From a virus (lineage: Duplodnaviria; Caudoviricetes), in IMG/VR virus record IMGVR_UViG_3300028797_000101, positions 32,001-96,000 of that record: DNA of 64,000 bases, one strand, 5' to 3'. Below the pieces are notes generated by a model. That model did no database searches. It saw only the letters and a list, made by a program, of their open reading frames with translations, and was not told where the DNA came from. Shown one piece after another: positions 3,930 to 55,034 of this stretch. A program made the position numbers and the translations under genes. Each line of letters begins with the position of its first letter. Position 1 is the first letter of the stretch.

Positions 3930-5093
3930 ATGGGTTACAGTTCATTAGTTTCTTACATAAAGCTAAGTCCAAATAAAAACAGCCCTCGAAACCATAAGAT
4001 TGATTCTGTAGCTATTCACTGTATGGCAGGGAATCTATCTGTAGAGACTTGTGGAGATTTGTTTGCTAATCCAGAAAGAAAAGCGTCGTCAAACTATGGA
4101 ATTGGTTCAGATGGTAGGATTGCTCTTTATGTAGATGAAAATGATAGATCCTGGTGTACATCTTCTGGTGGTGTAGATCATAGGGCAATCACAATAGAAG
4201 TCGCTAACAGCAGTATTGGTGATCCATGGCCTGTTTCTGATGCTGCGTATCAATCTCTTTTGAATCTTCTAACTGACATATGTAGAAGGAATCAGATATC
4301 TTCGCTAAGATGGATGGCCAATAAAGCGTATGCTGTTACAGCAGCTAACGGAGGTCCGGTAGATCAGCAAAACATGTTTGTACATAGATGGTTTGCTGCA
4401 AAAGCATGTCCAGGTGACTATCTTTACAACGCACATGGTGCAATTGCTACAGAAGTAAACAGACGTCTTGCATCAGGAGCTCCTATCACTCCAGTAGTTT
4501 CTACTGCAGCTCCTACCGTAGCTATTGATAGGTCTAAACTGAGACCATATGTCCCTATTCTAGATAGAGACTCACCAACTCCTAATTACTCTCAATTTTA
4601 TGCAAACGGTGTAGTAGGTGCGATTGTAGAAGCTGGATATCAGTTTACATCTGCACACATTCGTGTTGAAAACTTCAGAAATCCTAAGGCCTACGATCAG
4701 GTTCAAGCTCTTATCTCTGTGAGACTTCCCTTCGGCTACTACATGATAGCAAGAGCACAAAATTTATCGGAAGTTAGAGAGGAAATGTATCAGCTATCAT
4801 TTCTGGTAAGAAAATACTCTCCAGGGCTTGGTGTGTGGTTGCAATTAGATCTTCCTAAAAATCAACCAGATATAAATGATAATATCTTAAACGCATATAA
4901 GACATATCTCATAAAATTAGGTCTTGTAGGTAAGATAGGAATATATGCTGATAGCAGTACAATCAAAAGTATCAACTGGAGCAAGCATTATCACGAATGG
5001 CTTCTGTGGTATGTAGATAGAGTTTCTGGAGTTGGTCAATTATCTACTGTATTTGACTCTTCGTTCTTCGCTATGTCAGGGAGGTACACATAA
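3930..5093 (+). CDS. Virion-associated N-acetylmuramoyl-L-alanine amidase (Amidase_2) plus GH25-like domain
   Basis: AIHC, SSNYGIG, TIEVA and HRWFAAKACPG motifs; the C-terminal half has a GH25-like pattern. Confidence 0.8.
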   Translation: MGYSSLVSYIKLSPNKNSPRNHKIDSVAIHCMAGNLSVETCGDLFANPERKASSNYGIGSDGRIALYVDENDRSWCTSSGGVDHRAITIEVANSSIGDPWPVSDAAYQSLLNLLTDICRRNQISSLRWMANKAYAVTAANGGPVDQQNMFVHRWFAAKACPGDYLYNAHGAIATEVNRRLASGAPITPVVSTAAPTVAIDRSKLRPYVPILDRDSPTPNYSQFYANGVVGAIVEAGYQFTSAHIRVENFRNPKAYDQVQALISVRLPFGYYMIARAQNLSEVREEMYQLSFLVRKYSPGLGVWLQLDLPKNQPDINDNILNAYKTYLIKLGLVGKIGIYADSSTIKSINWSKHYHEWLLWYVDRVSGVGQLSTVFDSSFFAMSGRYT

Positions 5094-7505: not shown

Positions 7506-9557
7506 ATGGATTATGAAAAAGGTGTAGTTAACTACACTTCAAGAGATTATGAATCCATAATGAAGGATTTCTGGGAGTTAGTTCCTACACTAACCGAGTT
7601 ATGGAAGCCAGAAGCTGACGCAGATCCTGGAGTAGTTTTAGGCAAGTTTCTAGCATCTGCTGCGGATATGCTAGGCGTGAATGTTGACATACTTGTAGGT
7701 GAACTACTTGCGCCGTCTGTGTCCCAGAGAAAGAATGCAGAGAAGCTATTCGGATTGATTGGCTATGAACTCGGTTGGTATCGAGCAGCAAGGACAGAGG
7801 TTACGTTCACCAACAACACAAGTGTCAACATGACGCTTGATTTCGGTTTCAATGGAACCAATTTCGCTACACTTAATGCTTACACAGATATCACCAATCA
7901 ATCTAGAGTGTTGACTTACAACATTTTACCGCTTACAAATTCGTATGGTGCAACAGAGTCAAGAAGCAGACGTGTAACTACAACAGAAAATCTGAATGTG
8001 TTTGCCACATCCGATGAAGTTACCTTGCTTCCAGGAGCTAGCGTGACAAGAGTTGCAATTGAAGGCGAACTCAGAAGTTACAGTGTTTCTGTAGATCAGG
8101 TGAAGAAGAATAACTACATAATAAACGTACCTTCACAGCATATTGATACTACAGCCATCTGGATAAAAGCAAAAGCTTCTCAAGGAGCGGAAGATTTCTT
8201 AGCTACGCAGTGGATTCAATGTAATAGCCCTGCAGAGTTTGTAACTCCAGAACCCAGATTCGCGGTAACATATGATTACTACTCCAATGCACAGATACAA
8301 GTAAGCAACTATCTCAATCAACTTGAGAACTACGAAAACAATTACTTGACTGTTTATTGGATAGACTGTTCCGGCATCATAGGATGTGTAGGAACTAATG
8401 TGCTCCGCAATTACCTTCAGGCGAAAGTAACTAGCGGTGTAGTTGTTAGCGATGAAAGCGGAGACCTTAGCGTGTCTAACTTGTCTAACACAGTGGAGTT
8501 ACCACACACCAATACCGTTACAGGCAAGAGCCCTGAGACGGCAAAAGAAGCTTACATCAACAGCAGAAATTATATCAACACTTTCGACAGTTTAGTTACA
8601 CTTCCGGACTTCAATAGGTTCTTAAATAGAGAGCCTGGAGTAGATTGTGGATTGGTCATCGACTGCCAGAAAGCTCTTGACATTAACTTGGCGATTTATG
8701 ATGATGAAAATCTCTCAGACGCACAGAAGTCTAAGATGTACATAAGCAACTACGACTTCCCTGCAGGCAATGAATCACTTGATTGGTCTGCACTTATCAA
8801 CAGCAACTTGAGCTCCAGAACACTTCTTCATCTTGTAAGTGCTGGAGAAACATTAGAGGAAATCTCTTTAAGATACAATGTTACAGAAGCAACCATTCTT
8901 AACTACAACAATCTGACATCTGCGGATGACATTGAAGTAGGAATGAGGTTGAAGATTCCTGGAGGCTTCTCTGTAGCAAAAGCAAAAGGTCTTGTAACTA
9001 ACTTCAAGACATACACAGCGATGTGCTTTGCAATACACAATGACTTCAAAAACAGTGTATGGGGATCTGGTAAAGTATCAACAGCACAGATACAGAACAA
9101 GACTATCTTCACACGGTACAAGCCGCCCATGCAGTTCATCGACAATGTAATCAGAGATTATAGACCCCTTCAGGCCATGACAGTTGAACTTGAATTTGGA
9201 TATCTTCGCGTATTTCCATTTTACGTTGTAGGTCAAATATATCCGAAGAAGCCGGTTAGCAAAGATGTTGCAAACAACATAATCGCAAGAGTAAAAGAAT
9301 CACTTGCGATGTATTTTGCTCCTGCAAATCGTCAGATAGGTCAGAAACCTACTGTAATGGAAGTTGTAAACGTTGTACGAAACGCTGACAGTCGAATTGA
9401 TTACTTCGACGCAGGCAGTTTGAAGAACGAAGTTATTGTCTGGTTTGATTGTGATGTAAGCTATTACAATCCTATCAGCTTCGCTAGATTTTCTGATCCA
9501 GGAGTAACATCCACTAACATAAGGATCGCTCCTGAGTATATTGTTAAGAATCAGTAA
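7506..9557 (+). CDS. Baseplate wedge protein (gp6/J-like) with internal LysM domain
   Basis: NYTSRDYESI, DPGVVL and LVTLPDF motifs; LysM: HLVSAGETLEEISLRYNVT..NNL..IEVGMRLKIP. Confidence 0.8.
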   Translation: MDYEKGVVNYTSRDYESIMKDFWELVPTLTELWKPEADADPGVVLGKFLASAADMLGVNVDILVGELLAPSVSQRKNAEKLFGLIGYELGWYRAARTEVTFTNNTSVNMTLDFGFNGTNFATLNAYTDITNQSRVLTYNILPLTNSYGATESRSRRVTTTENLNVFATSDEVTLLPGASVTRVAIEGELRSYSVSVDQVKKNNYIINVPSQHIDTTAIWIKAKASQGAEDFLATQWIQCNSPAEFVTPEPRFAVTYDYYSNAQIQVSNYLNQLENYENNYLTVYWIDCSGIIGCVGTNVLRNYLQAKVTSGVVVSDESGDLSVSNLSNTVELPHTNTVTGKSPETAKEAYINSRNYINTFDSLVTLPDFNRFLNREPGVDCGLVIDCQKALDINLAIYDDENLSDAQKSKMYISNYDFPAGNESLDWSALINSNLSSRTLLHLVSAGETLEEISLRYNVTEATILNYNNLTSADDIEVGMRLKIPGGFSVAKAKGLVTNFKTYTAMCFAIHNDFKNSVWGSGKVSTAQIQNKTIFTRYKPPMQFIDNVIRDYRPLQAMTVELEFGYLRVFPFYVVGQIYPKKPVSKDVANNIIARVKESLAMYFAPANRQIGQKPTVMEVVNVVRNADSRIDYFDAGSLKNEVIVWFDCDVSYYNPISFARFSDPGVTSTNIRIAPEYIVKNQ

Positions 9558-12308: not shown

Positions 12309-12320
12309 GGAGTGATAGAG

Positions 12321-13724
12321 ATGAAAGATTCAAAGATCAAAGCAGATGTAGCTCTCAATGCGAAGCCTCTTGCTATCTTAGGCGAGTACGCAGGTGAATG
12401 TGCAGATGCAAATATCACTAACAAGAATGGTCTTGATATCACAAGGCCTGTGTGGGAAGGTGTATTTGCATCGGAGGAGTACAACGAAGGCATCAAAAAT
12501 GGTCATTACATCGGGTTCCTCGGACATCCTGAAGATCCAAACTGCATGGATTTCGAGCATGGATGTATTGTGATGACAGAAGGTCACATTGATCCAGATG
12601 GAAAGGTTCAAGGCAAATTCAACCTTGTTAACACGCCTGTAGGTCAGATTGTAAAAACTTTTATAGACGCAGGAGTTAAATTCGGCATATCTGTTAGAGG
12701 TGCTGGTGACATTGTAGACAATTCCGTAGATCCTGATACGTTTGTATTCAGAGGATTTGACCTTGTAGCGTTTCCTGCATATCCTAACTCCATTCCTACT
12801 TTCACAGAGATAGCCGCGTCTACAGACGCTGTTCAGCAAAAGAAATATCAAGCGGTTTGTGCTGCGGTAACAAAAAACTTAGATACACTTAACAAGACTG
12901 AGGTAGATGTTATCCAGGCTAATTTCGCAAAGCAGTCCAAGGAATATGCTGCACTTGAAACCAGAAAGAAAGTTTTAGCGGGTGAGCAAGTAGAAGTAAC
13001 ATCAGAGGCTGCAGAAGCTGTAGTTGCTTCTCAAAAGCTCGACGCTGTAACAGCTCTTTATCTAGAAGCACAGAAAAAGAATAAAGTTTTGCAGTCTGAA
13101 AACATCCATCTTCGTCAGCTACTGAAGACAATAAAATCTGCAGATAGCAGAAAGATCGACAGCTTGAATCGCATAACAGCTGCTCAAATGAGAGACATGG
13201 ATCAAGCTCTTGCAGATGCAGCTAGTAGAACAAAGAAAGCTGTACTGAGCAATCATTCTTTATCCAAAGATCTAGCAGACGTGACAAAGCGTCTTAAGTC
13301 TGCTGAAGATACTAACCTTAAATATAGTCAGAAGATCGAAGCCAACACTCAAATTATTCTGGAAAAGGATTCTATCATTTCTAAGCTTCAATCAAACTTA
13401 TCTGAAACTGTCAGAAAGGCCAATGATGCAGAAGCTAAGACATCAAACTGTGATGCACAGATAGCGAGCCTTCAACGAAAGATCGAGGCTGCACAAGCTC
13501 TCGTAGATGAGTATCAGAACGCATATGCACAGATTTATGCAAATGCAATTGGTGTAGGTCTAGAACACGTTTCTGTAACAGCAACAACGACTGTTTCAGA
13601 ACTCCAACAGATCATAAAGGGATCCTCCAAGTACACTTCTGGAGCGCAAGAAGCTGTTTTAGCTTCGGCACAAATCTCCGAAATAGGTACAGACATGGAT
13701 GACTCTTCCCTCATCACGTTGTAA
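12321..13724 (+). CDS. Prohead protease (T4 gp21-like) fused to a coiled-coil scaffold
   Basis: GFLGHP, FGISVRGAG and FDLVAFPAY protease motifs; long heptad-rich C-terminus; precedes the capsid gene. Confidence 0.85.
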   Translation: MKDSKIKADVALNAKPLAILGEYAGECADANITNKNGLDITRPVWEGVFASEEYNEGIKNGHYIGFLGHPEDPNCMDFEHGCIVMTEGHIDPDGKVQGKFNLVNTPVGQIVKTFIDAGVKFGISVRGAGDIVDNSVDPDTFVFRGFDLVAFPAYPNSIPTFTEIAASTDAVQQKKYQAVCAAVTKNLDTLNKTEVDVIQANFAKQSKEYAALETRKKVLAGEQVEVTSEAAEAVVASQKLDAVTALYLEAQKKNKVLQSENIHLRQLLKTIKSADSRKIDSLNRITAAQMRDMDQALADAASRTKKAVLSNHSLSKDLADVTKRLKSAEDTNLKYSQKIEANTQIILEKDSIISKLQSNLSETVRKANDAEAKTSNCDAQIASLQRKIEAAQALVDEYQNAYAQIYANAIGVGLEHVSVTATTTVSELQQIIKGSSKYTSGAQEAVLASAQISEIGTDMDDSSLITL

Positions 13725-13750: not shown

Positions 13751-15277
13751 ATGAGTATCACGAAAACTATTCATCCCTCTAGCAGACGTCCTGTTGCAAG
13801 CAACAGCCGCCCTGTTATGGCTAGTTCCAATGTTGGTGCTGCACGTCGTCCTGTAGCTCCTACCAATCGTCCTGCATCCGCTATTACAGCCGGTGTTCGT
13901 ACTCGTCAGCAGAGCCCTATTTCGGCTGCTATTTCTAAGCTGTCTCCTGAGAAGCAGATCTTCGCTCGTCAGCTGCAGGCAAATATGAATCGTCAGGCAC
14001 GTACCATCACTGCTGCTACCAACACGACCAACATCATGGCTCGCCCGGATTTCATGGAGCTGCTGCCTATGTTCGTTCAGAAGCTGCTTATCCTGGACGT
14101 TTATGGTTCCGTAGCAATGAAGTCCCGTCAGCAGTTGATTCCTTACTTCAAGTTCATCGCTGAGAACACTAAGGGTGAGACGAAGGCCGGTGACATCCTC
14201 TCCAGTCCTTTCGTAAATCGTCAGGGTGTTGATCCTAACTTCACCAGCAAGACCATCAAGAATGAGGTAATTGCTGAAGGCACCGATATCACCGACAACT
14301 TGACCGTTGTTTACACTCCTGTACTTCCTGGTTCCGTAACCATCAAGTATGTAGCTTCCGGCGTTACTACCGCACTTGTTGATGACGGTAACGGCAACAT
14401 CGTTGAGGCAGGTTCTACTACTACCGCAGGTGTTATCAATTACAGCACCGGTTCCATCAGCTTCGTGAACGGTGTGCTTACTCCTGCAGCAGGCAACAGC
14501 GTTTCTGCAACTTATCAGTACGACAACGAGAACGTAGGTCCTAGAACTCCTGGCAATGGCGGTTATGGTTACGAGTACGGCGCACAGATGGCTAAGGGCT
14601 ACTTGCAGCTGGATGAGATCAACATGGTAGCTGAAGCTCACGAGCTTGCTTGCTACTGGAGCATCTTCTCCGCATTCGCAGCACAGCAAGAGTACGGCTC
14701 CAACGTAGGCGACATCGCGAAGGAAGCTGCTTTCTCTGAACTCACTGCTGAAATCAACACCGATGGCTTCCAGCGTCTGCTCCAGGCTGCATCCTACAAG
14801 CCTCAGTTCAACTGGGATGCATCTCCTGTACTTACCGGTTCTGTTGTTCCTTCCGATTACCTGAACATGTTCAAGCTTAAGCTCACTCAGGCAGCTGCTT
14901 CCATTTATCAGGCAACCAGATTAACGCAGCCTAACAAGCTGATCGTTGGTTCCAACGTAGCTTCTTACATCAGCATGATCAACGGATTTGTTGCACAGGG
15001 CGCAGCAGAGAACGTAGGTCCTTACAAGGCAGGTAAGCTGGATCAGTTCGACATCTATGTAGATCCTAACTACAATCCGGATACTTGGGTAATGGCTTGC
15101 AAGTCTAACGACATCAGACGTAATACCGCTCTCTTCGGCGAGTACATGCCTCTGACGAGTACCGATGCGGTAGGTTTGGCCAATAGCTCGGTACAGCAGG
15201 GTTACGCTACGATGTATGGTATGAAGATCGTAAATCCTGACACCGTTGTATCCGGTAAGATTCTCGGCACATTCTAA
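13751..15277 (+). CDS. Major capsid protein (T4 gp23-like) with basic propeptide
   Basis: gp23-like motifs (FSELTAEIN, GKLDQFDIYVDP, GEYMPL, QGYATMYG); strong codon bias; position after the protease. Confidence 0.9.
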   Translation: MSITKTIHPSSRRPVASNSRPVMASSNVGAARRPVAPTNRPASAITAGVRTRQQSPISAAISKLSPEKQIFARQLQANMNRQARTITAATNTTNIMARPDFMELLPMFVQKLLILDVYGSVAMKSRQQLIPYFKFIAENTKGETKAGDILSSPFVNRQGVDPNFTSKTIKNEVIAEGTDITDNLTVVYTPVLPGSVTIKYVASGVTTALVDDGNGNIVEAGSTTTAGVINYSTGSISFVNGVLTPAAGNSVSATYQYDNENVGPRTPGNGGYGYEYGAQMAKGYLQLDEINMVAEAHELACYWSIFSAFAAQQEYGSNVGDIAKEAAFSELTAEINTDGFQRLLQAASYKPQFNWDASPVLTGSVVPSDYLNMFKLKLTQAAASIYQATRLTQPNKLIVGSNVASYISMINGFVAQGAAENVGPYKAGKLDQFDIYVDPNYNPDTWVMACKSNDIRRNTALFGEYMPLTSTDAVGLANSSVQQGYATMYGMKIVNPDTVVSGKILGTF

Positions 15278-22400: not shown

Positions 22401-23777
22401 GGCGTACCTTTGGAGGATCCTCCGTCAGCCACTTTTCAAATATTAAAGAAAGGAGAATAACATGGCTACATATTGTGTACAGAGTAATGTAATCAGAGGA
22501 TTGAGCAAAGAACAGTATGACGTACTTCGAGAAATGTGCAGATATTCTAATAATCTATACAATGTTGCACTTTATAACATTCGTCAACATTATTTCAACA
22601 CAAAGCAATTTTTAAACTACGAAGGCAACTATCACGAATGTAAGACGAATGAAAATTATAAGCTTTTGCAGGCAGGAATATCACAGCAGATAATGAAAGT
22701 TGTAGACAGAAGTTTCAAATCTTTCTTCAATCTGATTAAGAAATGTAAACTTGGAGATTACAGATATCACGATGTCAATATTCCACATTATAGACCTAAA
22801 GGCGGAATGTTTAATCTGATAATGTCTACAAATGCTCTTGTAGTGAAAAATGGATATCTATATGTTCCAATGAGTAGGAATTTCAGAACTTTGCACCCAG
22901 GTATGAAAGAAATCAAGATTGCATTTCCGGAAAGATTGACAGACAAGATTATTAAAGAAGTTCGCATCTTACCTTTTAACAATGGTCGTTACTTCAAGAT
23001 ACAATATGTATATGAAGTTGAACAAGAAGATGCCTACGTTGACAAGAATAATATTCTGTCAATAGATCTAGGTGTGGACAATCATGCTACTTGTGTTTCA
23101 ACTGTTGGGACACCGTTCATTATGGAAGGTCGTAAACTCAAATCAATCAACCATCAGTGGAACAAAGAATTAGCAAGACTTCGTTCTATTTCTATGAAAC
23201 AGAAATTAAAGACCACAAATCGGATACAGAATATCACAACAAAGCGAAACAATCGAGTCAATGATATTATCAAGAAGTCAGCAAGATACATAATCAACTA
23301 CTGTATCAAAAACAGTATTGGTACGCTCATTGTAGGCTACAGTGTTGATTTCAAAAGATATTCTAACATCGGTAAAGTTAACAATCAGAACTTTGTCCAG
23401 ATACCTTTAGGTGATCTTCGGCAACAACTTGAATTCCTTTGTTGGAAGTATCATATAGATTACATTAAACAAGAAGAAAGTTACACTTCTAAAAGCAGCT
23501 TTCTAGATAAAGATGTGCTTCCGGAGTACAAAGCAGAACAGCCGTATGAAGGTACATTCAGTGGTAAGCGCATAAAAAGAGGACTATACCAATCAAAGAA
23601 CGGTACAATCCTTAATGCTGATGTAAACGGGGCAGCTAATATCTTAAGAAAATGTAAGCAGAATGTCGATTTCGATAGACTGTGTAAAGGGCTTTTGGCG
23701 AGTCCAGTAAGAATAAGGATATCTTAAGTATCAAACTTCTTATGAATCCTATCAGCTTTAGCCGATGGGTACGTCAA
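22401..23777 (+). mobile_element. tnpB-only IS200/IS605-family element
   Basis: Starts after TTAT and ends with a right-end hairpin plus TCAA; removing it recreates ATG GAA ATG ACT in frame with ORF 23782. Confidence 0.8.
22462..23727 (+). CDS. tnpB: RNA-guided endonuclease TnpB
   Basis: LYNVALY, RuvC-I SIDLG, EESYTSK and RuvC-III NADVNGAANI motifs. Confidence 0.9.
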   Translation: MATYCVQSNVIRGLSKEQYDVLREMCRYSNNLYNVALYNIRQHYFNTKQFLNYEGNYHECKTNENYKLLQAGISQQIMKVVDRSFKSFFNLIKKCKLGDYRYHDVNIPHYRPKGGMFNLIMSTNALVVKNGYLYVPMSRNFRTLHPGMKEIKIAFPERLTDKIIKEVRILPFNNGRYFKIQYVYEVEQEDAYVDKNNILSIDLGVDNHATCVSTVGTPFIMEGRKLKSINHQWNKELARLRSISMKQKLKTTNRIQNITTKRNNRVNDIIKKSARYIINYCIKNSIGTLIVGYSVDFKRYSNIGKVNNQNFVQIPLGDLRQQLEFLCWKYHIDYIKQEESYTSKSSFLDKDVLPEYKAEQPYEGTFSGKRIKRGLYQSKNGTILNADVNGAANILRKCKQNVDFDRLCKGLLASPVRIRIS

Positions 23778-24735: not shown

Positions 24736-24831
24736 ATGGAAGAAAAGACAGATGTTGAAATTCCCGAAGTTGAAGTTGAAATTCCTGCAGAGATGCTTGA
24801 GGAATTTGAAAATGCGAAAGGAGACGATTGA
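24736..24831 (+). CDS. 31-aa acidic peptide preceding the endolysin
   Basis: GAGGAGG SD; MEEKTDVEIPEVEVEIPAEMLEEFENAKGDD; late-type motif at 24692. Confidence 0.55.
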   Translation: MEEKTDVEIPEVEVEIPAEMLEEFENAKGDD

Positions 24832-24833
24832 TA

Positions 24834-26378
24834 ATGGGTTACACTAATAGTCCCTTAGTGTCGTATGTAGCTCTCAGCCCGAATCATTCAGGTCAGAGAG
24901 TTCACGTTATCGACAGAATTACTCCACACTGCGTAGTAGGTCAAGCTACTGTGGAGAGACTTGGTCAGATATTTGCGCCCACTTCTAGAAAGGCAAGCTG
25001 TCAATATGGTATCGGTGTAGATGGGCGTGTAGGAATGTACGTAGAAGAAAAGAACAGATCTTGGTGCACTTCGTCTAACGCAAATGATCAGAGAGCTGTT
25101 ACAATTGAATGCGCATCGGACAATACTCATCCATACGCAATGAATGCATCGGTGTACACTACACTTGTTAACTTATGTGTAGATATCTGTAGCAGAAACG
25201 GGAAGAATCAGCTGTTGTGGATAAGCGATAAGAACAAGGCTCTGGCGTATGAGCCTAAGTCGAATGAGATGCTCCTTACTGCTCACAGATGGTTTGCTGC
25301 AAAAGCATGTCCCGGCGATTGGTTGTATTCTAGACTCGGAGATCTAGCTACAGCTGTAACCGCAAGGCTTGCAGGCAAATCAACAGACGATCAGGAATCC
25401 GGAACAATCGGAAATGTTCTCTATCGTGTGCAAGTAGGCGCATTTACATTTCAAGCGAATGCCGAACTCTTAAGAGAAACTCTCAGAGAAAAAGGATATG
25501 AGGCCATTGTTTCTAAGAACGGTGAATACTATCGTGTGCAAGTAGGCGCATTTAGAAACAAGCAGAATGCAACGGCTCTTGCAAACAAGTTAAGATTCGA
25601 TGGATATTCTCCATTCCTTGCAACTACAGGCGGCGTGAATGTCGGTAAAGATGCACTTCCGGCGGTTACCGGTACACCTACCACTGGATCTGATTCAGAT
25701 AATCAAGTGATCTGGAATTCGCTTATGGACTTCATAGGCAATGAATATGGTGTAGCAGGACTAATGGGCAACCTGTATGCAGAATCTAGCTTGAGATCTG
25801 ACAACCTTCAGAATTCTTATGAAGCTAAACTCGGATTCAACGATACAACGTATACACAGGCAGTAGATAGCGGTAACTACACTAACTTCGTTCATGACTC
25901 TGCTGGATACGGTTTAGCTCAGTGGACGTTCTGGAGCAGAAAAGAAAAGTATCTTGCATATGCGCAGAAGATGAAGAAGTCTATCGGAGATGGGCAGACA
26001 GCACTTGAATATCTGAAGATTGAGTTGTCTGAAAGCTATCCTTCTGTTGTTAGTACTCTGAAAGCTGCAACATCTGTTCAAGAAGCTTCTGATGTAGTGC
26101 TCGTTCAGTTTGAACGACCTGCTAATCAGAGCCAGAAGAATAAAGATCTCAGAGCTTCATATGGTCAAACATTCTATAACAGATATGCAACTCCTGAGGA
26201 GCCAAAAGAATCTGCTGCACCTGTATCCTCTGATAAGATTTACATTGTTAAGACTGGCGATACTTTGTCTAGAATCGCTAGCATGTATCATACAACCTAC
26301 GCAAAGTTAGCAGAGTATAACAATCTGCAAAATCCTAACAAGATCAGAGCTGGTCAGAAGATCAAAATTCCATCTTAA
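24834..26378 (+). CDS. Endolysin: Amidase_2 + 2x SPOR + phage lysozyme + LysM
   Basis: TPHC/HRWFAAKACPG; YRVQVGAF twice; GNLYAES/GLAQW/FERP; YIVKTGDTLSRIA. Confidence 0.9.
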   Translation: MGYTNSPLVSYVALSPNHSGQRVHVIDRITPHCVVGQATVERLGQIFAPTSRKASCQYGIGVDGRVGMYVEEKNRSWCTSSNANDQRAVTIECASDNTHPYAMNASVYTTLVNLCVDICSRNGKNQLLWISDKNKALAYEPKSNEMLLTAHRWFAAKACPGDWLYSRLGDLATAVTARLAGKSTDDQESGTIGNVLYRVQVGAFTFQANAELLRETLREKGYEAIVSKNGEYYRVQVGAFRNKQNATALANKLRFDGYSPFLATTGGVNVGKDALPAVTGTPTTGSDSDNQVIWNSLMDFIGNEYGVAGLMGNLYAESSLRSDNLQNSYEAKLGFNDTTYTQAVDSGNYTNFVHDSAGYGLAQWTFWSRKEKYLAYAQKMKKSIGDGQTALEYLKIELSESYPSVVSTLKAATSVQEASDVVLVQFERPANQSQKNKDLRASYGQTFYNRYATPEEPKESAAPVSSDKIYIVKTGDTLSRIASMYHTTYAKLAEYNNLQNPNKIRAGQKIKIPS

Positions 26379-29163: not shown

Positions 29164-29400
29164 ATGTTAGCATACATTAAATCTGCTCAAGACCCTAATG
29201 CAGATCCATTAGGTGATATCATGGACACAGTCGAAGATGATTTCGATTTCATCATGTCAGGATTAGATAAGCTGGGTCGAGAGAAGTCGACACAAGGTCA
29301 AGCTCTGACAATTGCATCTAACATGGCAGATGGGTTCCAGAGCATAATCAAAGACATAGCGAGTGCGCTGAAAGGAGAAAGAGTAAATGAGACCGAATAG
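29164..29400 (+). CDS. Hypothetical protein, MLAYIKSAQ leader
   Basis: AGGAGG SD. Confidence 0.6.
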   Translation: MLAYIKSAQDPNADPLGDIMDTVEDDFDFIMSGLDKLGREKSTQGQALTIASNMADGFQSIIKDIASALKGERVNETE

Positions 29401-30034
29401 ATGCTCTTCAGAAGAATTCATGCAGATATTAGAGGATCGTATCTCTAATCTGGAACAAGACGATTACGTAGCTAGCTCTCAAGCTATTCAAGCCGATGAG
29501 GAGATTGATGAGGAGACATTGGATGCCATTTGGGACATTGCAAACAGATATGTCACATCTTATCCTGTTTCGGGTGATTGGGAGACTGAGACACCACATG
29601 CGATGCACGCCATCATGGATGAGCTTGGCGTAGACGAAGCTACAGCTCAGAGGTACATGATCGAAGGACTTGGATATTCACCTGAAGAATTTGAGTCTAT
29701 GAACAAACAAGCTAAAGTAGAGAAAGAAGTTTTAGATGTGCTTGCGAAGCATGGTTATGATATCAGCACAGAAGCTGCTCGGTATCTTGCAAATGCTGCA
29801 ACAATGTATATCCTCGAGTGGCCTGAGGGCGAGTACGATGCAGAAACATGGTTCAACGATACAAAGACGAACTATCCAGAAGAGCTCGAATACCTCAAAT
29901 ACCCCGAAGAAATCGAAAGTGCTTGCAATACAACTGGAATGCCTGCAGCTGTAACTCAGTTAGATGACGTAGACAAGATCGAGGGCTGCGGAATCAACTG
30001 CTCCACGAACATTGACGGACTTATCACCGTCTAA
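29387..30034 (+). CDS. Acidic modular hypothetical protein
   Basis: Internal VASS, IQAD, IESA and INCS motifs. Confidence 0.6.
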   Translation: MRPNRCSSEEFMQILEDRISNLEQDDYVASSQAIQADEEIDEETLDAIWDIANRYVTSYPVSGDWETETPHAMHAIMDELGVDEATAQRYMIEGLGYSPEEFESMNKQAKVEKEVLDVLAKHGYDISTEAARYLANAATMYILEWPEGEYDAETWFNDTKTNYPEELEYLKYPEEIESACNTTGMPAAVTQLDDVDKIEGCGINCSTNIDGLITV

Positions 30035-31621: not shown

Positions 31622-32029
31622 ATGAGAATTTCTGTTAACAAACATACAGTGACAGCATCTCAGAGAATTGTAGCTGCAGATGAAGATAATCCATTTGAGG
31701 GAATGCAGGCAGACAAGGTCGAGGAGGACAACTTCGATACCTCTTTTGAATCTACTGAGGATGATGTAACAGATCAGTTAGACGACATATCTGATGATGT
31801 TGAAGACCTTCAGGACGCTTTATCTGATGTTCAGGAGGATGACACAAACATCGAGATAGACAACAACATCTCCGGACATTACATAGCTGAATGTGAGAGA
31901 TGTCATGGAATCTTTATTTCAGCTGTAACCGAATCTGATCAAACTGTCAAGAAAATAACCGGTGTGTGTCCTCTGTGTGACAGAGAGACAGATCAGTATT
32001 TGAAATGGGTGGTGAAGGATATTGAGTAA
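31622..32029 (+). CDS. Acidic Zn-ribbon protein, VTAS/IVAAD leader
   Basis: CERC..CPLC; late-type motif at 31564. Confidence 0.65.
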   Translation: MRISVNKHTVTASQRIVAADEDNPFEGMQADKVEEDNFDTSFESTEDDVTDQLDDISDDVEDLQDALSDVQEDDTNIEIDNNISGHYIAECERCHGIFISAVTESDQTVKKITGVCPLCDRETDQYLKWVVKDIE

Positions 32030-32255
32030 AGCTGATCACGAAGGCAGGTACTGTTGTGATTTCTGTGGTAATTTTCATAGACGATTACCTGGAAACATAT
32101 ACAAGTTAGCTATAAAAGGGAAAACTTTTCATTTTTGTAGCTGGACATGCTACGAATCGGCAAAAAGAATAAAAGCCTCTACTTCTGGAGAAGACGCGAG
32201 GCGGCGATTAGAAAAGAGAAGGGAGAAGTTTTCTAGCAATGAAGCGATATGTTAA
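32022..32255 (+). CDS. Small Zn-binding (TRASH-like) protein
   Basis: CDFCG..FCSWTC motif. Confidence 0.55.
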   Translation: MSKADHEGRYCCDFCGNFHRRLPGNIYKLAIKGKTFHFCSWTCYESAKRIKASTSGEDARRRLEKRREKFSSNEAIC

Positions 32256-32628: not shown

Positions 32629-33606
32629 ATGGCCTACAGTGCATATGATGCAGAAATGCTGAGCAAGCAGCAAGATGAAGGATATCAATATGAGTTACGT
32701 CACGGATGGGGGCCTGGTACTCTTCCAAAGGATGTTGAAGTCTTTGAACATACTGTGGATGGCTACAAGGACTACGTGACGCTCAATCGGAAACTAACTC
32801 CGGAAGAATTGAAGGAGTACGATATAAAAGAAAGGAGCAATACCGCAATGAATGATGATTTCAAGTCTGCATCCACAGGCGACCTTACGCTTGAGTACAT
32901 AAATCACATTTATTATGTCATTGATGAGTTCGCTGATGACGAGGACAACACATTGTTCTACACGTCTAGACTAGAAGGAATTAAAGAAAACTACCCATCG
33001 CTTTATCAAGCGTTTGTCAACAAGTATGGAGTAATCGAAGATTATGACAACAACGATGATGTAGATTATGCTAGCGATGATGAAGACTACGACAACAACG
33101 ATGATGAAACTTATGAACTCATTGATCGTAAGGACGTTCTTGATTCAGATGGGTTCTACACAGAGTATTCGATGTATCGAGATCTTTCTACCGGTGAATA
33201 TGTTTTCGTGTTTGGCGACAGCGATATTTACAGACCTGAGGATGGCGATTTCGATCATGTAACTGACAGTGAAGACGAAGCCTGGGAGTGGTTCAACAGC
33301 TATGAAGGATTCGCAGAGGATGAGGACGAAGATATCTACAGCAGCGTAGAACTTGATGCAGCTGCTCAAGACAGGCTTGAAGATATCGAGTTCGTAATGA
33401 ACAATTATGTCAATGGAACATATGGCATGACTGTAGAGTCTCAAGGCAACGGCAAGTTCATTGTAGACTACGAGGGCTTGATTGCAGAAGTGCAGTTTAA
33501 TCCTGCCGCAGATGAATTTGTTTACACTATCAATGGAGCAGGACCTTTTGATCACAGCTCATATGAATACATTGCTAAAGACATCTACGATGTTCTGATG
33601 TTCTGA
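32629..33606 (+). CDS. Acidic multi-module protein with N-terminal DarA_C-like domain
   Basis: YELRHGWGPGTLPK..YVTLNRKLTPEELKEYDIK resembles the defence-against-restriction A C-terminal domain. Confidence 0.55.
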   Translation: MAYSAYDAEMLSKQQDEGYQYELRHGWGPGTLPKDVEVFEHTVDGYKDYVTLNRKLTPEELKEYDIKERSNTAMNDDFKSASTGDLTLEYINHIYYVIDEFADDEDNTLFYTSRLEGIKENYPSLYQAFVNKYGVIEDYDNNDDVDYASDDEDYDNNDDETYELIDRKDVLDSDGFYTEYSMYRDLSTGEYVFVFGDSDIYRPEDGDFDHVTDSEDEAWEWFNSYEGFAEDEDEDIYSSVELDAAAQDRLEDIEFVMNNYVNGTYGMTVESQGNGKFIVDYEGLIAEVQFNPAADEFVYTINGAGPFDHSSYEYIAKDIYDVLMF

Positions 33607-33629
33607 TGCAGGAGTAGGAGGACGTCTAA

Positions 33630-35531
33630 ATGGATTTTATGTTTGATCAAGATGCAGGATTCTTTACAAGAGATGATCTAAACGAGTTTTCAAGTGAACT
33701 GGAGGATGCGCTTTCCGGATATGGTGACTTTGGAGTTAGTGAAAGCTACATGGAGAAAGAAGGCAAATCATACATCTTTTACATCAGCATTGTCAACATG
33801 GACACGATGTCTGAGTTTGAGATCGACATTCCTATCGACATGAGGAAAATAAGAAAGCCTTCCGATCTTATTACTAAGTACATTCCTCAAGCTGTAGACG
33901 AAGTATTATCCACAGAACGTGAGCTAGGTGAAATAACTAGCTCGGAAGAGGTTACTTCCGGCACCTCATTAAAGCGAATTGTCAAAGAAGACAGTGCCGA
34001 TAACTATCATGTTCTTCGTAACTGGAAGCGCATGACGGACGACGAAGCAGAAGATGCAGCAAAGCAAGCTTCATTGGACGACCCAGAGGGCGTCTACTAC
34101 GTAGCGTATGATGACGTTATGAATCCATCATCTGAATACAGATGGAAGAATGGTGTGAAGAAAAGCATCTACGCGGATGAAGATGTAGATGAAGAAGAGG
34201 ATTACATCGACACACCAGAACAGGAATTCACTTCTGAGAAAACCTCTATCAATGCTGACAAGCTGCCCGCATTGTTTAAGATGGTTAAGTTCGCACCGAA
34301 TTCTCTGAACTTAGACTACGGCGGAGGAAAATTCGACAATGTTACAGATTTCTTAGCCGAGCAGAATGTAGAAAATCTTGTTTATGATCCTTACAACAGA
34401 AGCGCAGAGCACAATAAATCCGTTCTCGCTAAGGTTCGTAGCAACGGCGGTGCTGACACCATTACTTGTTCCAATGTTTTGAACGTAGTAAAAGAGCCTG
34501 AGGTTCGTCAGTCCATCTTAACCAACATCAAGAAGCTGCTCAAGCCTAACGGAACTGTTTACATCACAGTTTACGAAGGCCTGAAAGACAAACCTGAAGG
34601 GCCTACAAAATCCGGATATCAACTCAACAGAAAAACAGAAGATTATCTAGATGAGATCCGGCAGGTCTTCCCAGATGCAGAAAGGAGAGGTAAATTGATT
34701 ACAGCACACAACGGAGCTAGTGCAGTAAAGAGCGCAACCGCTATTACATCTGCTTCCGATGAACAAACACTCTTGTCCGAACTTCAATCAGCTTTAACAG
34801 AAATCATGAAGTCCTTCGGATTTGAAGATAAAGAAGTACCGCTGTACTCGAGAATCGACATTTCTGAAAATAAAGATGGCTACATAATAATCGAAGTAGG
34901 TGCGGAGTTGAGTTATGACGGAATGTCGGAACTGGGTGATGCACTTGATCCTATCGTTCAGAAGTATGATTCAGATGCTTATTTCGACATGGAAGATCCC
35001 GGATTGATGTCTGCATTCCTTGCACCTGGTTCAATCAAAATAAAGGCTAGCGAAGACATTGAGGATGGTGTAGATGTGATACAAGCTGTATACAATGTTC
35101 CTGATCACGATTTAGAACCCGATGAAGAAGAGCCTGTAGAGCTTGATGATGACGAAGCTGTAATTGACGTTTCACTCGATGCAGATGTGGAAATAGATGA
35201 GGATGGTAATTGGGATTTCACCGACACTCAATACCCCTGGGTAAGTGATCAAACATTCTACTTAGAGGATGGTGGAGCTCAAATCTATCTTGCAGATAAA
35301 CTCAGTGTAGTAGAAGATGTATGTGATATCATTGAGCCGCTGCTTCCTGCAGAGCCGGGTGTATATCATGTAAGCGGATTCCCGAATCTCATTTACAACA
35401 TAACAAACAAGATCAGCTACAAGGACAGTGATTACGAGTACGAACCAGAAGACGTAAAGGTTTCATTTGATCTGTCTAAGTCCTACGTAGAGCAGTTCAA
35501 GTGTTACAAGACTTCTGATAGCTCAAAGTAA
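33630..35531 (+). CDS. Acidic multi-module protein containing a class I SAM methyltransferase domain
   Basis: LDYGGG, YDPY, CSNVLNVV and LLKPNG..YITVYEG motifs. Confidence 0.75.
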   Translation: MDFMFDQDAGFFTRDDLNEFSSELEDALSGYGDFGVSESYMEKEGKSYIFYISIVNMDTMSEFEIDIPIDMRKIRKPSDLITKYIPQAVDEVLSTERELGEITSSEEVTSGTSLKRIVKEDSADNYHVLRNWKRMTDDEAEDAAKQASLDDPEGVYYVAYDDVMNPSSEYRWKNGVKKSIYADEDVDEEEDYIDTPEQEFTSEKTSINADKLPALFKMVKFAPNSLNLDYGGGKFDNVTDFLAEQNVENLVYDPYNRSAEHNKSVLAKVRSNGGADTITCSNVLNVVKEPEVRQSILTNIKKLLKPNGTVYITVYEGLKDKPEGPTKSGYQLNRKTEDYLDEIRQVFPDAERRGKLITAHNGASAVKSATAITSASDEQTLLSELQSALTEIMKSFGFEDKEVPLYSRIDISENKDGYIIIEVGAELSYDGMSELGDALDPIVQKYDSDAYFDMEDPGLMSAFLAPGSIKIKASEDIEDGVDVIQAVYNVPDHDLEPDEEEPVELDDDEAVIDVSLDADVEIDEDGNWDFTDTQYPWVSDQTFYLEDGGAQIYLADKLSVVEDVCDIIEPLLPAEPGVYHVSGFPNLIYNITNKISYKDSDYEYEPEDVKVSFDLSKSYVEQFKCYKTSDSSK

Positions 35532-35601
35532 CACAAAATACCAAAATCGTTATAGACTGTGATACAATATGTGTCACAGTCTATTTTTATGGAGGTACAG
35601 G

Positions 35602-52073: not shown

Positions 52074-52607
52074 ATGTCAGAAACAAAAAGCAACATTGCA
52101 CAGAGAAGTAAAGAGGAGTTGAGGGCAGATGGTGTGACTTTGCTTGGTGCAGGCCATACTGAGTACCCTAACACCTACAATCCAGGAGTGCTTCAGTCAT
52201 TTGAGAACAAGAACAAAGATGTCGATTATGTAATTACTTTCGACATTACAGAAGGCACAAGCCTTTGCCCTGTTACGCATCAGCCAGATTTCTTTAAGAT
52301 GGTTGTTACGTACATTCCTGCAGATAGATGCCTCGAATCAAAATCTGCAAAGTTATACAATTTTGGTTGGAGAGAGACTCCTTCCTACCATGAGGATATT
52401 GTCAATACTACTATGAAGGATATCAGAGATCTTATCCACCCGAAACTGATCGTAGTCAAAGGTATATTCTCGGTTCGTGGTGGCATCGCCTTGTTCCCTG
52501 TAGCTACATATGCTGATCCTAAGTATCCTGAGTATGTTGAGATGGAGAAGCAGATCAAGATGCAGTCCATGTGCGATGCAATCAATCGTACTGTCAAGTA
52601 TGACTAA
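52074..52607 (+). CDS. queF: NADPH-dependent preQ0 reductase (type I)
   Basis: GVTLLG, SLCPVT.QPDF, ESKSAKLY, HED and RGGI motifs. Confidence 0.9.
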   Translation: MSETKSNIAQRSKEELRADGVTLLGAGHTEYPNTYNPGVLQSFENKNKDVDYVITFDITEGTSLCPVTHQPDFFKMVVTYIPADRCLESKSAKLYNFGWRETPSYHEDIVNTTMKDIRDLIHPKLIVVKGIFSVRGGIALFPVATYADPKYPEYVEMEKQIKMQSMCDAINRTVKYD

Positions 52608-52631
52608 GTAACTACGGAAGGTGGAACGCAA

Positions 52632-53372
52632 ATGAAAGCGATAGTATTGAATTCAGGCGGTATGGACAGCTCAACGCTAGTCGGCGTGGCTGTTGAAAAA
52701 TATGGCAAAGAAAATGTAGTAACTGCAAGCTTGTTTTACGGACAGAAGCATTTCAAGGAGTTAGAGTGTGCTAAAAAGATTGCAGAATACTACGGAGTAC
52801 GTCACATTGAGGAGGATGTGTCATGCGTAATGAAGTATGCAGGCGATGTTTGCTCTCTCATTCAGGGCTCTAAAGACGAAATCATAGACAAAAGTTATGC
52901 TGATCAGATCGCAGAGAACGGAGAAGGCAGAGTCAACAGTTATGTACCCTTCCGGAATGGTCTCTTTTTATCAATCGCTGCGGCTTATGCAGATAGCTTG
53001 TTTCCAGGAGAGCCTTCCGAAGTATGGTACGGGGCTCACACGGACGACGCCGCAGGAAATGCGTATGCAGATTGCTCCTCAGAATTTGCAGAAGCTATGA
53101 ACAAAGCAATAAATATCGGCACATACGGAAACATAAATGTAGTGAGACCTCTCATCAACATGAACAAGGCCGATGTGTGTAGAGAAGGACTTAAGTTAAA
53201 TGTTCCTTATCACCTCACCACATCTTGCTATCATGGTAGAGAGAAGGCTTGTGGAAAGTGTGGAACATGTTTAGATCGCATTGAAGCATTTCGTGCAAAC
53301 GGTGTGATTGACCCTGTTGAGTATGAATCTGCTGTCGATTGGACAGGATGCAAGCCGGTTGAGATTCAGTAA
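52632..53372 (+). CDS. queC: 7-cyano-7-deazaguanine synthase
   Basis: SGGMDS, YGQKH, YVPFRN, Y.DC and SCY..CGKCGTC motifs. Confidence 0.95.
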   Translation: MKAIVLNSGGMDSSTLVGVAVEKYGKENVVTASLFYGQKHFKELECAKKIAEYYGVRHIEEDVSCVMKYAGDVCSLIQGSKDEIIDKSYADQIAENGEGRVNSYVPFRNGLFLSIAAAYADSLFPGEPSEVWYGAHTDDAAGNAYADCSSEFAEAMNKAINIGTYGNINVVRPLINMNKADVCREGLKLNVPYHLTTSCYHGREKACGKCGTCLDRIEAFRANGVIDPVEYESAVDWTGCKPVEIQ

Positions 53373-53385
53373 AGGAGAACATAGT

Positions 53386-53817
53386 ATGGCTACAGAAGTA
53401 GAAACTTATTTTTCATTCGAGGCAGCTCATAGGCTGTATGATGTTGACACGTATTCTGAGGAGTGCCGAAATAATCTTCATGGGCACTCTTATGTAGTTA
53501 AAGTAGTAGTGTCTAGTCGGAGCCTCAACAATGCGGGAATGGTGATTGACTTCAAGCTTCTTAAGAAGATTCTCAAGGAGACTATTGAGGACAAGTATGA
53601 TCATTCTTGTATTCTTCGTTCCTGTGATCCACTTGCAGAGGTTGTAAAGGCTAATTGTAAGAAGGTTCACATTGTAGAAGATAATCCTACTGCCGAGTGG
53701 ATGGCTAAGAAATTTTTCATGGATATCTTGTTTGCTCTTTCTTCCATGGAGTATATTACTGTTGAAAAAGTTTCTGTTCAGGAGACAGAACATAACATTG
53801 CTACGTTCATGGGGTGA
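53386..53817 (+). CDS. queD: 6-carboxytetrahydropterin synthase
   Basis: FEAAHRL, C.NLHGHSY, GMVIDF, DH, PTAE and ET motifs; SD before ATG 53386. Confidence 0.95.
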   Translation: MATEVETYFSFEAAHRLYDVDTYSEECRNNLHGHSYVVKVVVSSRSLNNAGMVIDFKLLKKILKETIEDKYDHSCILRSCDPLAEVVKANCKKVHIVEDNPTAEWMAKKFFMDILFALSSMEYITVEKVSVQETEHNIATFMG

Positions 53818-53821
53818 TAAG

Positions 53822-54457
53822 ATGAAAATAACAGAAATTTTCAAAAGTATTTCAGGTGAATCTATACAGGCCGGATATCCGGCAACATTCATAAGAACAC
53901 ATGGATGTTTGCTAAGATGCAGCTATTGCGATTCGATGTATGCTGTAGAAGGCGATGGCTACGGGAACATGTCAATCGCTGAGATATTAGAGACAGTGCT
54001 GAAGCTAAACTGCAAGCGAATTGTGTTAACTGGTGGTGAGCCGCTCATTCAGCATGATGCATTTGATCTTGTTCAAGAACTTCTTGCTTATGGATGTTCT
54101 GTAGAGATTGAAACATGCGGCGCAGTAGATATTTCAAAGTATATTTTACCTGGCGTAATTGTTACCATGGACTGGAAATCTATAAGCAGCGGAATGAATG
54201 GCAGAATGCTGCCAAGCAACTTGAGTAAGCTTCGAGATACAGATGTACTTAAGTTTGTAGTTTCTACCGAGGATGATCTAGAAGACATGGCTAAAGTATC
54301 AACACAAACTAAAGCACAGTGCTTCGTCAGTCCGATATTTGGGAAAATTGACCCGCAGGAGATTGTCATGTATCTTATCCAGAATGATCTCAACAACATT
54401 CGGATTCAATTACAGCTACATAAAATAATTTGGGATCCAAACAGAAAAGGAGTGTAA
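53822..54457 (+). CDS. queE: 7-carboxy-7-deazaguanine synthase (radical SAM)
   Basis: [21 protein letters not shown] and QLHK motifs. Confidence 0.95.
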
Positions 54458-54458
54458 C

Positions 54459-55034
54459 ATGAAGAATATAGACAGCAAGAAGATCGAAGAGCTTACAAGA
54501 GAGTTTCTCATAGCTCTCGGAGATGATCCAGATCGCGAAGGGTTGAAGAAAACACCCTACAGAGTAGGTAAGATGTGTCAAGAGATTTTTGAAGGAATGC
54601 AGTATACTAATGAAAATATTGCGAAGATGTTCAACACCTGTTTTGAAGATGTAGCGACTGGCGATTTAGTTGTAGAGTGTCACATTCCTATTCACAGCTT
54701 CTGCGAGCATCATTTGATGCTAATGTACGAAGTAGATGTAGCTATCGGCTACATTCCTAATGGCCGTGTCATTGGTCTCAGTAAACTCGCAAGGATTGCA
54801 GACATGGTAGGCAAAAGACTTCAGCTTCAGGAGAGAATTGGTTCTGACATTGCCGATATTTTACAAATGGTTCTGAATACAGAAGACATCATTGTAGTTA
54901 TCGAGGGTAAACACGGCTGCATGACAGCAAGGGGCATCAAAGCTAGAGAAGCTGTAACGCGTACCGCTACACTTAGAGGTAGATTTAACACAGATTCTGA
55001 TCTGAGGGCGGAGTTCTATTCTTTAATAAAGTAG
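54459..55034 (+). CDS. folE: GTP cyclohydrolase I
   Basis: REGL..TP.R, CEHH, GLSKLAR, QLQER and H.CM..RG motifs. Confidence 0.95.

Follow-up and report, generated by a model that had tools for sequence, protein, structure and literature searches.

The window analysed here, 64,000 nucleotides long, covers positions 32,001 to 96,000 of the IMG/VR record IMGVR_UViG_3300028797_000101, a 159,304-bp contig of a gut or rumen tailed phage (Caudoviricetes) with nearly all of its genes on the plus strand. Within it lies an open reading frame (ORF) for a protein of 633 amino acids (aa) that bears a methyltransferase (MTase) as the middle one of five modules. This protein belongs to a large family that is probably of the polyprotein type, whose members would be cut at the joints between modules by the phage's own prohead protease, of the Peptidase_S77 (T4 gp21) family, and carried as cargo of the head. 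For the 633-aa protein itself, which lacks the leader seen on most of its relatives, the chance of the same fate is about even.

An AlphaFold2 model built from a 40-sequence alignment (mean predicted local distance difference test score, pLDDT, 74.6) divides the protein into five folded modules and four linkers, as follows (here and below, a slash marks a predicted cut).

33630..35531, plus strand: the methyltransferase-bearing ORF, 633 aa, 71 kDa, isoelectric point (pI) 4.2, five modules laid out as beads on a string
33660..33929, plus strand (aa 11-100): module M1, alpha/beta, pLDDT 80-88, no family match
33930..33962, plus strand (aa 101-111): junction 1, EITSSEEVTSG, disordered, predicted cuts ITS/S and VTS/G
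33963..34163, plus strand (aa 112-178): module M2, small, beta/alpha
34164..34202, plus strand (aa 179-191): junction 2, SIYAD and an acidic spacer (SIYADE at aa 179-184), predicted cut IYA/D
34203..34715, plus strand (aa 192-362): MTase module, class I, S-adenosylmethionine (SAM)-dependent, from Pfam and AlphaFold2
34716..34754, plus strand (aa 363-375): junction 3, ASAVKSATAITSA, double site with predicted cuts VKS/A and ITS/A
34755..35033, plus strand (aa 376-468): module M3, a ferredoxin-like alpha/beta sandwich, pLDDT >94
35034..35120, plus strand (aa 469-497): junction 4, IKIKASED and an acidic run (IKASED..IQAV at aa 471-487), disordered, predicted cut IKA/S
35121..35519, plus strand (aa 498-630): module M4, beta-rich with one helix, pLDDT >90

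Inside the chain, pLDDT drops below 50 only at aa 102-110, 125-130, 181-191, 324-329, 363-375 and 471-497, and the four of these stretches that lie between modules (102-110, 181-191, 363-375 and 471-497) coincide with four clusters of a short motif. The original prediction, made from the sequence alone, had proposed about five modules separated by such clusters, and it stands on both counts, with every cluster it quoted found in the ORF (aa 101-111, 179-184, 365-377 and 471-487, the third reading AVKSATAITSASD). It had also set the MTase between the IYAD and VKSA/ITSA clusters at about 34215-34710, which agrees with the modelled 34203-34715, and had suggested comparing AlphaFold boundaries with the motif positions; the clusters fall in the joints and not in folded domains. 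The further copies to which it pointed, in the ORFs at 29387, 49567/49582 and 18191, are present as well. A second model, of aa 376-633 (pLDDT 87.7), again leaves the joint between M3 and M4 disordered, and S368 in junction 3 is conserved in more than 90% of homologues.

In its strict form the motif is [IV]x[ASC][ASDE]. The 633-aa protein has eight copies, five of them in the linkers, which make up 13% of its residues (p ~0.001 in whole-protein shuffles and ~0.003 in within-linker shuffles, for linker windows that were set after the model was seen). At E <= 0.001 the family takes in about 1,104 clusters close to the 633-aa protein in length, 475 of shorter proteins and 312 of longer ones, or about 1,900 at 90% identity, all of them unnamed metagenomic proteins of 167 to 1,580 aa, many on contigs of 90-210 kb. 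Hidden Markov models of the modules, applied to the best 120 homologues (a set biased to proteins that share many modules), found at least 19 module orders. The commonest, MTase-M3-M4, accounts for 51 of these 120, and M3 stands ahead of the MTase in 20. M3 is present in 113, before or after the MTase, and M4 in 118, always last, while M1 (28/120) and M2 (31/120) are optional and variable in position. An LPD11 domain adjoins the MTase in a few relatives, and more than 100 proteins of 167-215 aa are solo MTases.

Joints were compared in 61 representatives with less than 70% mutual identity, which supplied 95 junctions between recognised modules. The motif occurs at 0.0357 per residue in the junctions versus 0.0053 within modules, an enrichment of about sevenfold, and it is found in all 25 MTase-to-M3 junctions, all nine M2-to-MTase junctions and 30 of the 36 M3-to-M4 junctions tested. 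The usual joint is a double site that reads V-E-S-S-T-x-I-T-A-A. When each of the 95 junctions was shuffled within itself, preserving its composition, the count of motifs fell from the 122 observed to 35.8 +/- 5.5, and that of junctions with a motif from 85 to an expected 30. The joints thus appear to be a signal and not a matter of composition, and selection on them across the family seems to be very strong. The small leaderless subgroup, comprising the 633-aa protein and its five closest relatives, also keeps all four joints through about ten changes that preserve the pattern (for example, ITSS to VYSS and IKAS to INSS), and in one close relative, P0006, M2 is missing exactly between two sites.

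The same motif ends a leader at the N-terminus of most homologues, with the form MK-basic-x-[IV]-x-[AS]-[AS]. By this strict rule it stands on 73 of 120 homologues of similar length; a looser rule, which asks only for the motif within 30 aa, raises the count to 94 of 120, and for the long forms the two figures are 78 and 90 of 120. Leader and joint can even be aligned with each other. For example, the leader of P0067 (..SVTAG/TSLKRI) matches junction 1 of the 633-aa protein (EVTSG/TSLKRI), and that of P0030 (MKRYIRTS/TQDEF..QEFTSE) matches junction 2 (SIYAD/EDVDEEED..QEFTSE). Across the phage genome the leader motif stands on 30 of 191 plus-strand proteins, compared to 1% at internal Met residues.

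A second kind of end is found on 15 short MTases, which close with the motif, an acidic run and L-[IV]-T-L, as in AVTSS/TDYEDDDIELITL. The tail mimics a C-terminal ending that is conserved among the protease-scaffold proteins (..DDSSLITL, ..DDDLVTL), which suggests a second, C-terminal loading signal that would be cleaved off. An acidic 215-aa protein encoded in the window at 29387-30034 (plus strand) ends in ..GINCS/TNIDGLITV, that is, in the motif, TNI as in the capsid-protein site and a scaffold-like tail. Of the 199 plus-strand proteins of the genome, only this one and the protease-scaffold have both a scaffold-like ending and a motif within their final 30 aa, and the end of the former is a candidate C-terminal capsid-loading signal.

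The presumed processing enzyme and the major capsid protein are encoded side by side.

12312..13724, plus strand: Peptidase_S77 (T4 gp21 family) protease with a coiled-coil, scaffold-like tail, the presumed processing enzyme, 10 motif copies
13751..15277, plus strand: Gp23-family major capsid protein, with a basic, variable first 88 aa that hold 4-5 motifs and end at the conserved ITA/ATNTTNIMARPDF

The last motif in the variable part of the capsid protein reads ITA/ATNTTNI. In 19 orthologues from 26 IMG/VR loci, this N-terminal part varies freely and always ends in [IV][TM][AG]A/TNTxNIMA(R/K)PDF. The protease has a conserved [IV]AA/S immediately after its protease domain, and orthologues of the enzyme keep F-T-x-[IV]-[AS]-A/[SAT] at this place, where a conserved F-T-x-[IV]-A-A/S-T-D stands in 19 of them. 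Its scaffold-like part is about 300 aa long, and its counterparts upstream of the capsid gene in loci L007-L027 all have a C-terminus of the form acidic-x-L-V-T-L. This arrangement is reminiscent of the protease-scaffold protein of herpesviruses and its release site. The junction motif is thus the same as the leader end, the capsid boundary site and the boundary site of the S77 protease domain, and it fits what would be sites of the S77 protease of the same genome, on the borders of the capsid protein and of the protease. When a position-specific scoring matrix of the capsid site was run against the MTase family, the seven best matches, such as VTSATNTANIAA and VNSATNTSNINA, all lay in junctions or other non-module stretches and none inside a module. 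Some relatives have twelve-residue near-copies of the capsid site in their junctions.

In some relatives modules of the chain are encoded separately. Locus L031 has, in the syntenic position ahead of the UvrD and SbcC-like genes, one gene each for the MTase (185 aa, beginning MKRLIYAS), M3 (117 aa, beginning MKIRRTVTAA) and M4 (158 aa), the first two leader-tagged. Between 5363 and 8606 of that locus, five of six adjacent small genes are leader-tagged (MKRYIRNS, MKRLIYAA, MKRLIYAS, MKKLVRIV and MKIRRTVTAA); the leader system therefore seems to be common to the phage group, with the MTase locus as a hot spot for tagged genes. In locus L003, M1 is a separate, leaderless gene upstream, and locus L032 has a solo MTase gene 3 kb ahead of the S77 protease and capsid genes. 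In multi-module relatives the MTase, M3 and M4 occur together, whether fused or split, which makes one functional set likelier than several independent effectors, although solo MTase genes exist.

The proposed mechanism follows from these patterns. The sequence [IV]-x-[AS]-[ASDE] would be the site of a gp21-type prohead protease, cut after its third residue, with a hydrophobic residue at P3 and Ala or Ser at P1, a rule closer to that of assemblin than to the [LI]-x-Glu of T4. Cutting would free M1, M2, MTase, M3 and M4 as separate pieces of about 12, 8-9, 21, 11 and 18 kDa, respectively. The leader and the scaffold-mimicking tail would both be capsid-loading signals, by analogy with the capsid-targeting sequence of T4, and the 633-aa protein would have lost both or never had them. 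Most likely, then, family members would be head cargo that is split at maturation and delivered together with the DNA, after which the MTase, M3 and M4 would act as one unit on a substrate that is probably not DNA. Of the original proposal, a prohead-protease polyprotein releasing several small effectors, the part about processing gains from the enrichment at the joints, the match of leader, capsid and protease sites and the split genes of L031; the part about several effectors fares less well, for MTase, M3 and M4 look like one set, and the ORF itself is without loading signals.

That absence is the first of several points that weigh against processing, above all for the 633-aa protein. Neither this protein, which begins MDFMFDQD and ends ..YKTSDSSK, nor any of its five closest relatives has an N-terminal leader or a scaffold-like C-terminal tail. 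Its start is firmly assigned to the ATG at 33630, which is preceded by a strong ribosome-binding site read directly from the sequence:

33610..33621, plus strand: ribosome-binding site of the 633-aa ORF, AGGAGTAGGAGG

An in-frame TAA adjoins the ATG on its upstream side; any leader encoded further up is thus cut off from the ORF, and read-through from the upstream genes cannot supply one. Since T4-type proteases act inside proheads (PMC9026906), a protein that was not packaged would stay uncut, and the arrival of a leaderless protein at the protease is the weakest step of the scheme. The gene neighbours are those of DNA metabolism (RecU, HD, UvrD, SbcC-like and ligase genes), and the synteny of this block with the MTase gene is kept in relatives. 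Some of the solo MTases have no leader of any kind, so the enzyme is able to function in the cytoplasm like any ordinary protein. Every predicted product is acidic (pI 4.1-5.0), and the specificity assigned to the S77 protease is read from sequence patterns only. Finally, the retention of sites in the leaderless subgroup is weak evidence of selection, because exchanges of I for V and A for S are common substitutions and the group, at 85-91% identity, is young.

The explanation that competes best takes the protein to be an uncut multidomain enzyme of the cytoplasm, whose joint motifs are relics of tagged or polyprotein ancestors or of a recent fusion and lie idle without a loading signal. It is rather unlikely on balance, although it accounts readily for the missing leader and tail, the strong ribosome-binding site of the gene's own, its place among replication and repair genes and the existence of leaderless solo MTases. 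The M1-first protein of L003, leaderless and encoded by a separate gene, suggests how such a chain may have arisen, by the fusion of a leaderless M1 gene onto a tagged MTase gene, and in so young a subgroup relic sites may not have decayed. Idle relics are harder to reconcile with four junctions that keep their pattern in six leaderless relatives through about ten substitutions, with the deletion of M2 in P0006 being bounded exactly by sites and with the very strong selection on junctions across the family.

Another explanation is that the joints are cut, but in the cytoplasm, by the S77 enzyme outside proheads or by another phage or host protease, so that the pieces act in the cell that produces them. 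The conservation of the junction motif even where there is no loading signal, the acidic products and the setting among genes of DNA metabolism would all suit it. However, the surroundings of the locus showed no further protease gene, the capsid protein and the head protease themselves have sites that fit the motif, proteases of the T4 type are activated within the prohead (PMC9026906), and there are relatives with scaffold-like tails or beside head genes, all of which makes cutting in the cytoplasm quite improbable. That the motifs are a by-product of flexible linkers rich in Ser, Ala and Thr, or chance, with no function as a signal, is very improbable: the motif is short and degenerate, and chance would give about 4.7 copies for the length and composition of the protein, compared to the eight seen, but the shuffled junctions held 36 +/- 5 motifs against the 122 observed, the near-copies of the capsid site stand in junctions, and the N-terminal leader ends in just this motif.

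The middle module is, by its profile and its predicted fold, a class I SAM methyltransferase. Its match to Pfam Methyltransf_23 (PF13489; aa 227-399, E 3.1e-9, 37.2 bits against a cut-off of 27) is the only Pfam domain in the protein. SAM motif I is LDYGGGKF (aa 227-234), and among 40 homologues D229, G231-G233 and D253 are invariant or more than 90% conserved. The invariant residues include Y252, D253, P254 and N256, then G273, G274, A275 and D276, and the run S281, N282, V283, L284, N285 and V286. The highly conserved core takes in the N-terminal extension QEFTSENTSIN..KLPAIFK, DYGGG, VYDPYN, CSNVLNV and YEG..EGPTKSGYQLNR. A Foldseek search with the module returned SAM methyltransferases only (GSMT, SgvM, a halide methyltransferase, Coq5 and METTL6, at E 1e-5 to 2e-4), none of them specific, so that its likeness is to generic small-molecule, RNA and protein methyltransferases. 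Phage DNA was one of the targets that the original prediction had offered for the enzyme. Such action is not indicated, because the (D/N/S)PP(Y/F/W) motif of DNA methyltransferases is absent from the whole 633-aa protein (regular-expression search) and the fold is like those of enzymes acting on small molecules, RNA or protein. The DNA-methyltransferase profiles N6_N4_Mtase, MethyltransfD12 and N6_Mtase likewise gave no Pfam match at E <= 0.01, and NCBIfam gave nothing.

A preQ1-type base methylase was also considered, on the basis of FolE, QueC and QueE genes 17 kb downstream of the ORF that suggested a 7-deazaguanine link, and was rejected, as the MTase family is found in KVP40-like Vibrio phages too. 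The 7-deazaguanine synthesis block itself lies at 52074-55034 (plus strand), with two GTP cyclohydrolase-type genes, a QueC-like gene and a QueE-like gene. The phage probably modifies its DNA bases.

The remaining modules resemble little beyond their own family. PHROGs returned families of unknown function only for the ORF, and M1 to M4 had no match in Pfam (to E 5), PHROGs, NCBIfam or the PDB sequences. A feature search of the ESM Atlas with aa 1-180 gave nothing usable. A model of M3 and M4 together found no match in the PDB at E <= 0.001 with Foldseek, and in BFVD only unannotated family members, one of them auto-named NodS. A wide VIA-align search with the same model gave generic ferredoxin-like matches to M3 only (Z <= 7.6), with M4 barely covered. 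Thus, no specific structural relative of M3 was found in these searches, nor any relative of M4 outside its own family in the PDB (Foldseek) or BFVD. None of the modules showed a peptidase, either by profile or by fold, with M1 and M2 not fold-searched on their own, and no paralogues of the modules were found elsewhere in the 159-kb genome.

Two features flank the ORF on the same strand.

32629..33606, plus strand: acidic ORF upstream, 325 aa, without a leader, with an N-terminal GPGTLP module and a DSDGFYTEY module
35552..35584, plus strand: terminator-like hairpin that separates the MTase gene from the UvrD-type helicase gene, with a perfect 15-bp stem, a 3-nt loop and then a T-run, TTTTATGG

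In other phages (P0050, P0078, P0081, P0160 and others), modules of the upstream ORF are fused to the MTase. The GPGTLP module stands at the N-terminus behind a leader in the MTase-bearing chains P0050, P0078, P0081, P0241 and P0244, with a ..CTITAS joint next to it, and in P0050 the MTase block begins after it, at about residue 308. The DSDGFYTEY module is joined to solo MTases in P0131, P0160, P0179 and P0210. An identity of the upstream ORF as DarA_C was discarded, with a sub-threshold Pfam match (E 0.061) and an hhalign probability of 0.1% against the last 140 residues of P1 DarA. The upstream ORF shares one frame with the ORF at 32239, but a TAG lies between the two and overlaps a normal ribosome-binding site. 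On the other side, the hairpin is likely the end of a transcription unit, and the UvrD-type helicase probably starts at a later Met (MLNEEQQ) rather than at 35569.

As for timing, the block that holds the MTase gene is not purely early, given that relatives have a holin gene close by. A sigma-70 promoter scan of 12.5 kb found sites no commoner than in shuffles and gave no information on timing. The top match of that scan (33796-33767, minus strand, TTGACA-18-TATGAT, 11/12) lies inside the ORF and is probably due to chance, since no minus-strand gene follows it. Elsewhere, the window carries two paralogous amidase-type endolysins, at 3930-5093 and 24828-26378 (plus strand), the second with a C-terminal cell-wall-binding part, and a transposase-family gene at 22462-23727 (plus strand; phrog_506, E 7e-39) between the head-tail genes and the second endolysin. 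A LysM motif in the baseplate-region ORF at 7506-9557 points to a Gram-positive host.

Of the known systems, T4 comes first to mind. Within its prohead the gp21 protease cleaves on the C-terminal side of [LI]-x-E, and the internal proteins are loaded by means of a capsid-targeting sequence of 10 residues (PMC9026906). As with the T4 proteins IPI, IPII, IPIII and Alt, the present system has a Peptidase_S77 protease and a Gp23 capsid protein. It also has a short N-terminal tag that ends in a protease site and stands on many unrelated small proteins, and the T4 tag likewise begins MK-x-Y. The site differs, being [LI]-x-E/ in T4 and [IV]-x-[AS]/[AS] here, and sites between the modules of long chains, which are present in this family, are not described in T4. 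The T4 internal proteins are tagged and basic, whereas the 633-aa ORF is untagged and its products would be acidic.

The giant phages phiKZ, 201phi2-1 and SPN3US process their head and ejection proteins at A/S-x-E with gp175 or gp245 (PMC10052503, PMC9026906). Like the present phage, they have a T4-related prohead protease, a three-residue motif, many head-internal proteins and several sites per propeptide. However, their cuts remove N-terminal propeptides and have Glu at P1, while the sites described here separate modules that are found elsewhere as stand-alone genes.

The proteases of the gp21 type and of the herpesviruses are homologous (PMC9026906), which brings in a further comparison. 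The S77 enzyme of this phage is a fusion of protease and scaffold, as assemblin is, and has its conserved site directly after the protease domain. The consensus of herpesvirus assemblin (UL26) is (V/L/I)-x-A/S, with a hydrophobic P3, Ala at P1 and Ser at P1', as in the predicted phage site. Cargo polyproteins are not known in herpesviruses.

The polyvalent proteins of phages, for which release via embedded zincin peptidase domains was proposed by Iyer et al. 2017, are long chains as well (PMC5512222). They resemble the present family in being made of shuffled, mostly uncharacterised modules with proposed delivery along with the DNA, and LPD11 is again found next to the MTase in some of the relatives here. 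None of the polyvalent vocabulary (LPDs, MPTase, ART, ArdC, DarB-type MTase) was found in the 633-aa ORF at E <= 5. In place of an embedded peptidase, of which none was found, the family has a fixed joint motif for a protease that would act in trans. The enzymes differ too: the polyvalent proteins have an N6-adenine DNA methylase of the DarB type, coupled to an SNF2 helicase (PMC5512222), and the protein described here a Methyltransf_23-type enzyme without an NPPY motif. The Dar system of P1 shares the idea of a packaged, injected methyltransferase but differs in the class of enzyme. DarA and DarB are head-packaged, injected anti-restriction proteins, and DarB is a 2,255-aa N6-adenine methylase-helicase. 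None of these systems, whether T4, phiKZ-like, polyvalent or P1 Dar, combines a head protease acting in trans with a fixed joint between modules and an interchange of split and fused forms. A search of the literature found no paper on this leader, on a phage head-protease site of the Ala/Ser type or on protease-cut phage polyproteins.

A wider account may tentatively be offered. In one widespread lineage of phages from gut and rumen, with heads of the T4 type, the gp21-type protease could have been re-tuned to [IV]-x-Ala/Ser as a universal joint, so that cargo may be encoded interchangeably as leader-tagged genes, as proteins with scaffold-mimicking tails or as polyproteins, and the MTase-M3-M4 unit, once injected, might modify a non-DNA target in the host before any phage gene is expressed. 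If this is true, tailed phages use true polyproteins that are cut in trans by the head-maturation protease, a strategy usually associated with RNA viruses, and a protease of the T4 family can follow the same cutting rule as its relatives in herpesviruses. The rule for leader, joint and tail sequences would then list the injected cargo for thousands of uncultured gut phages, and one abundant item of that cargo, with about 1,900 protein clusters, would be a methyltransferase.

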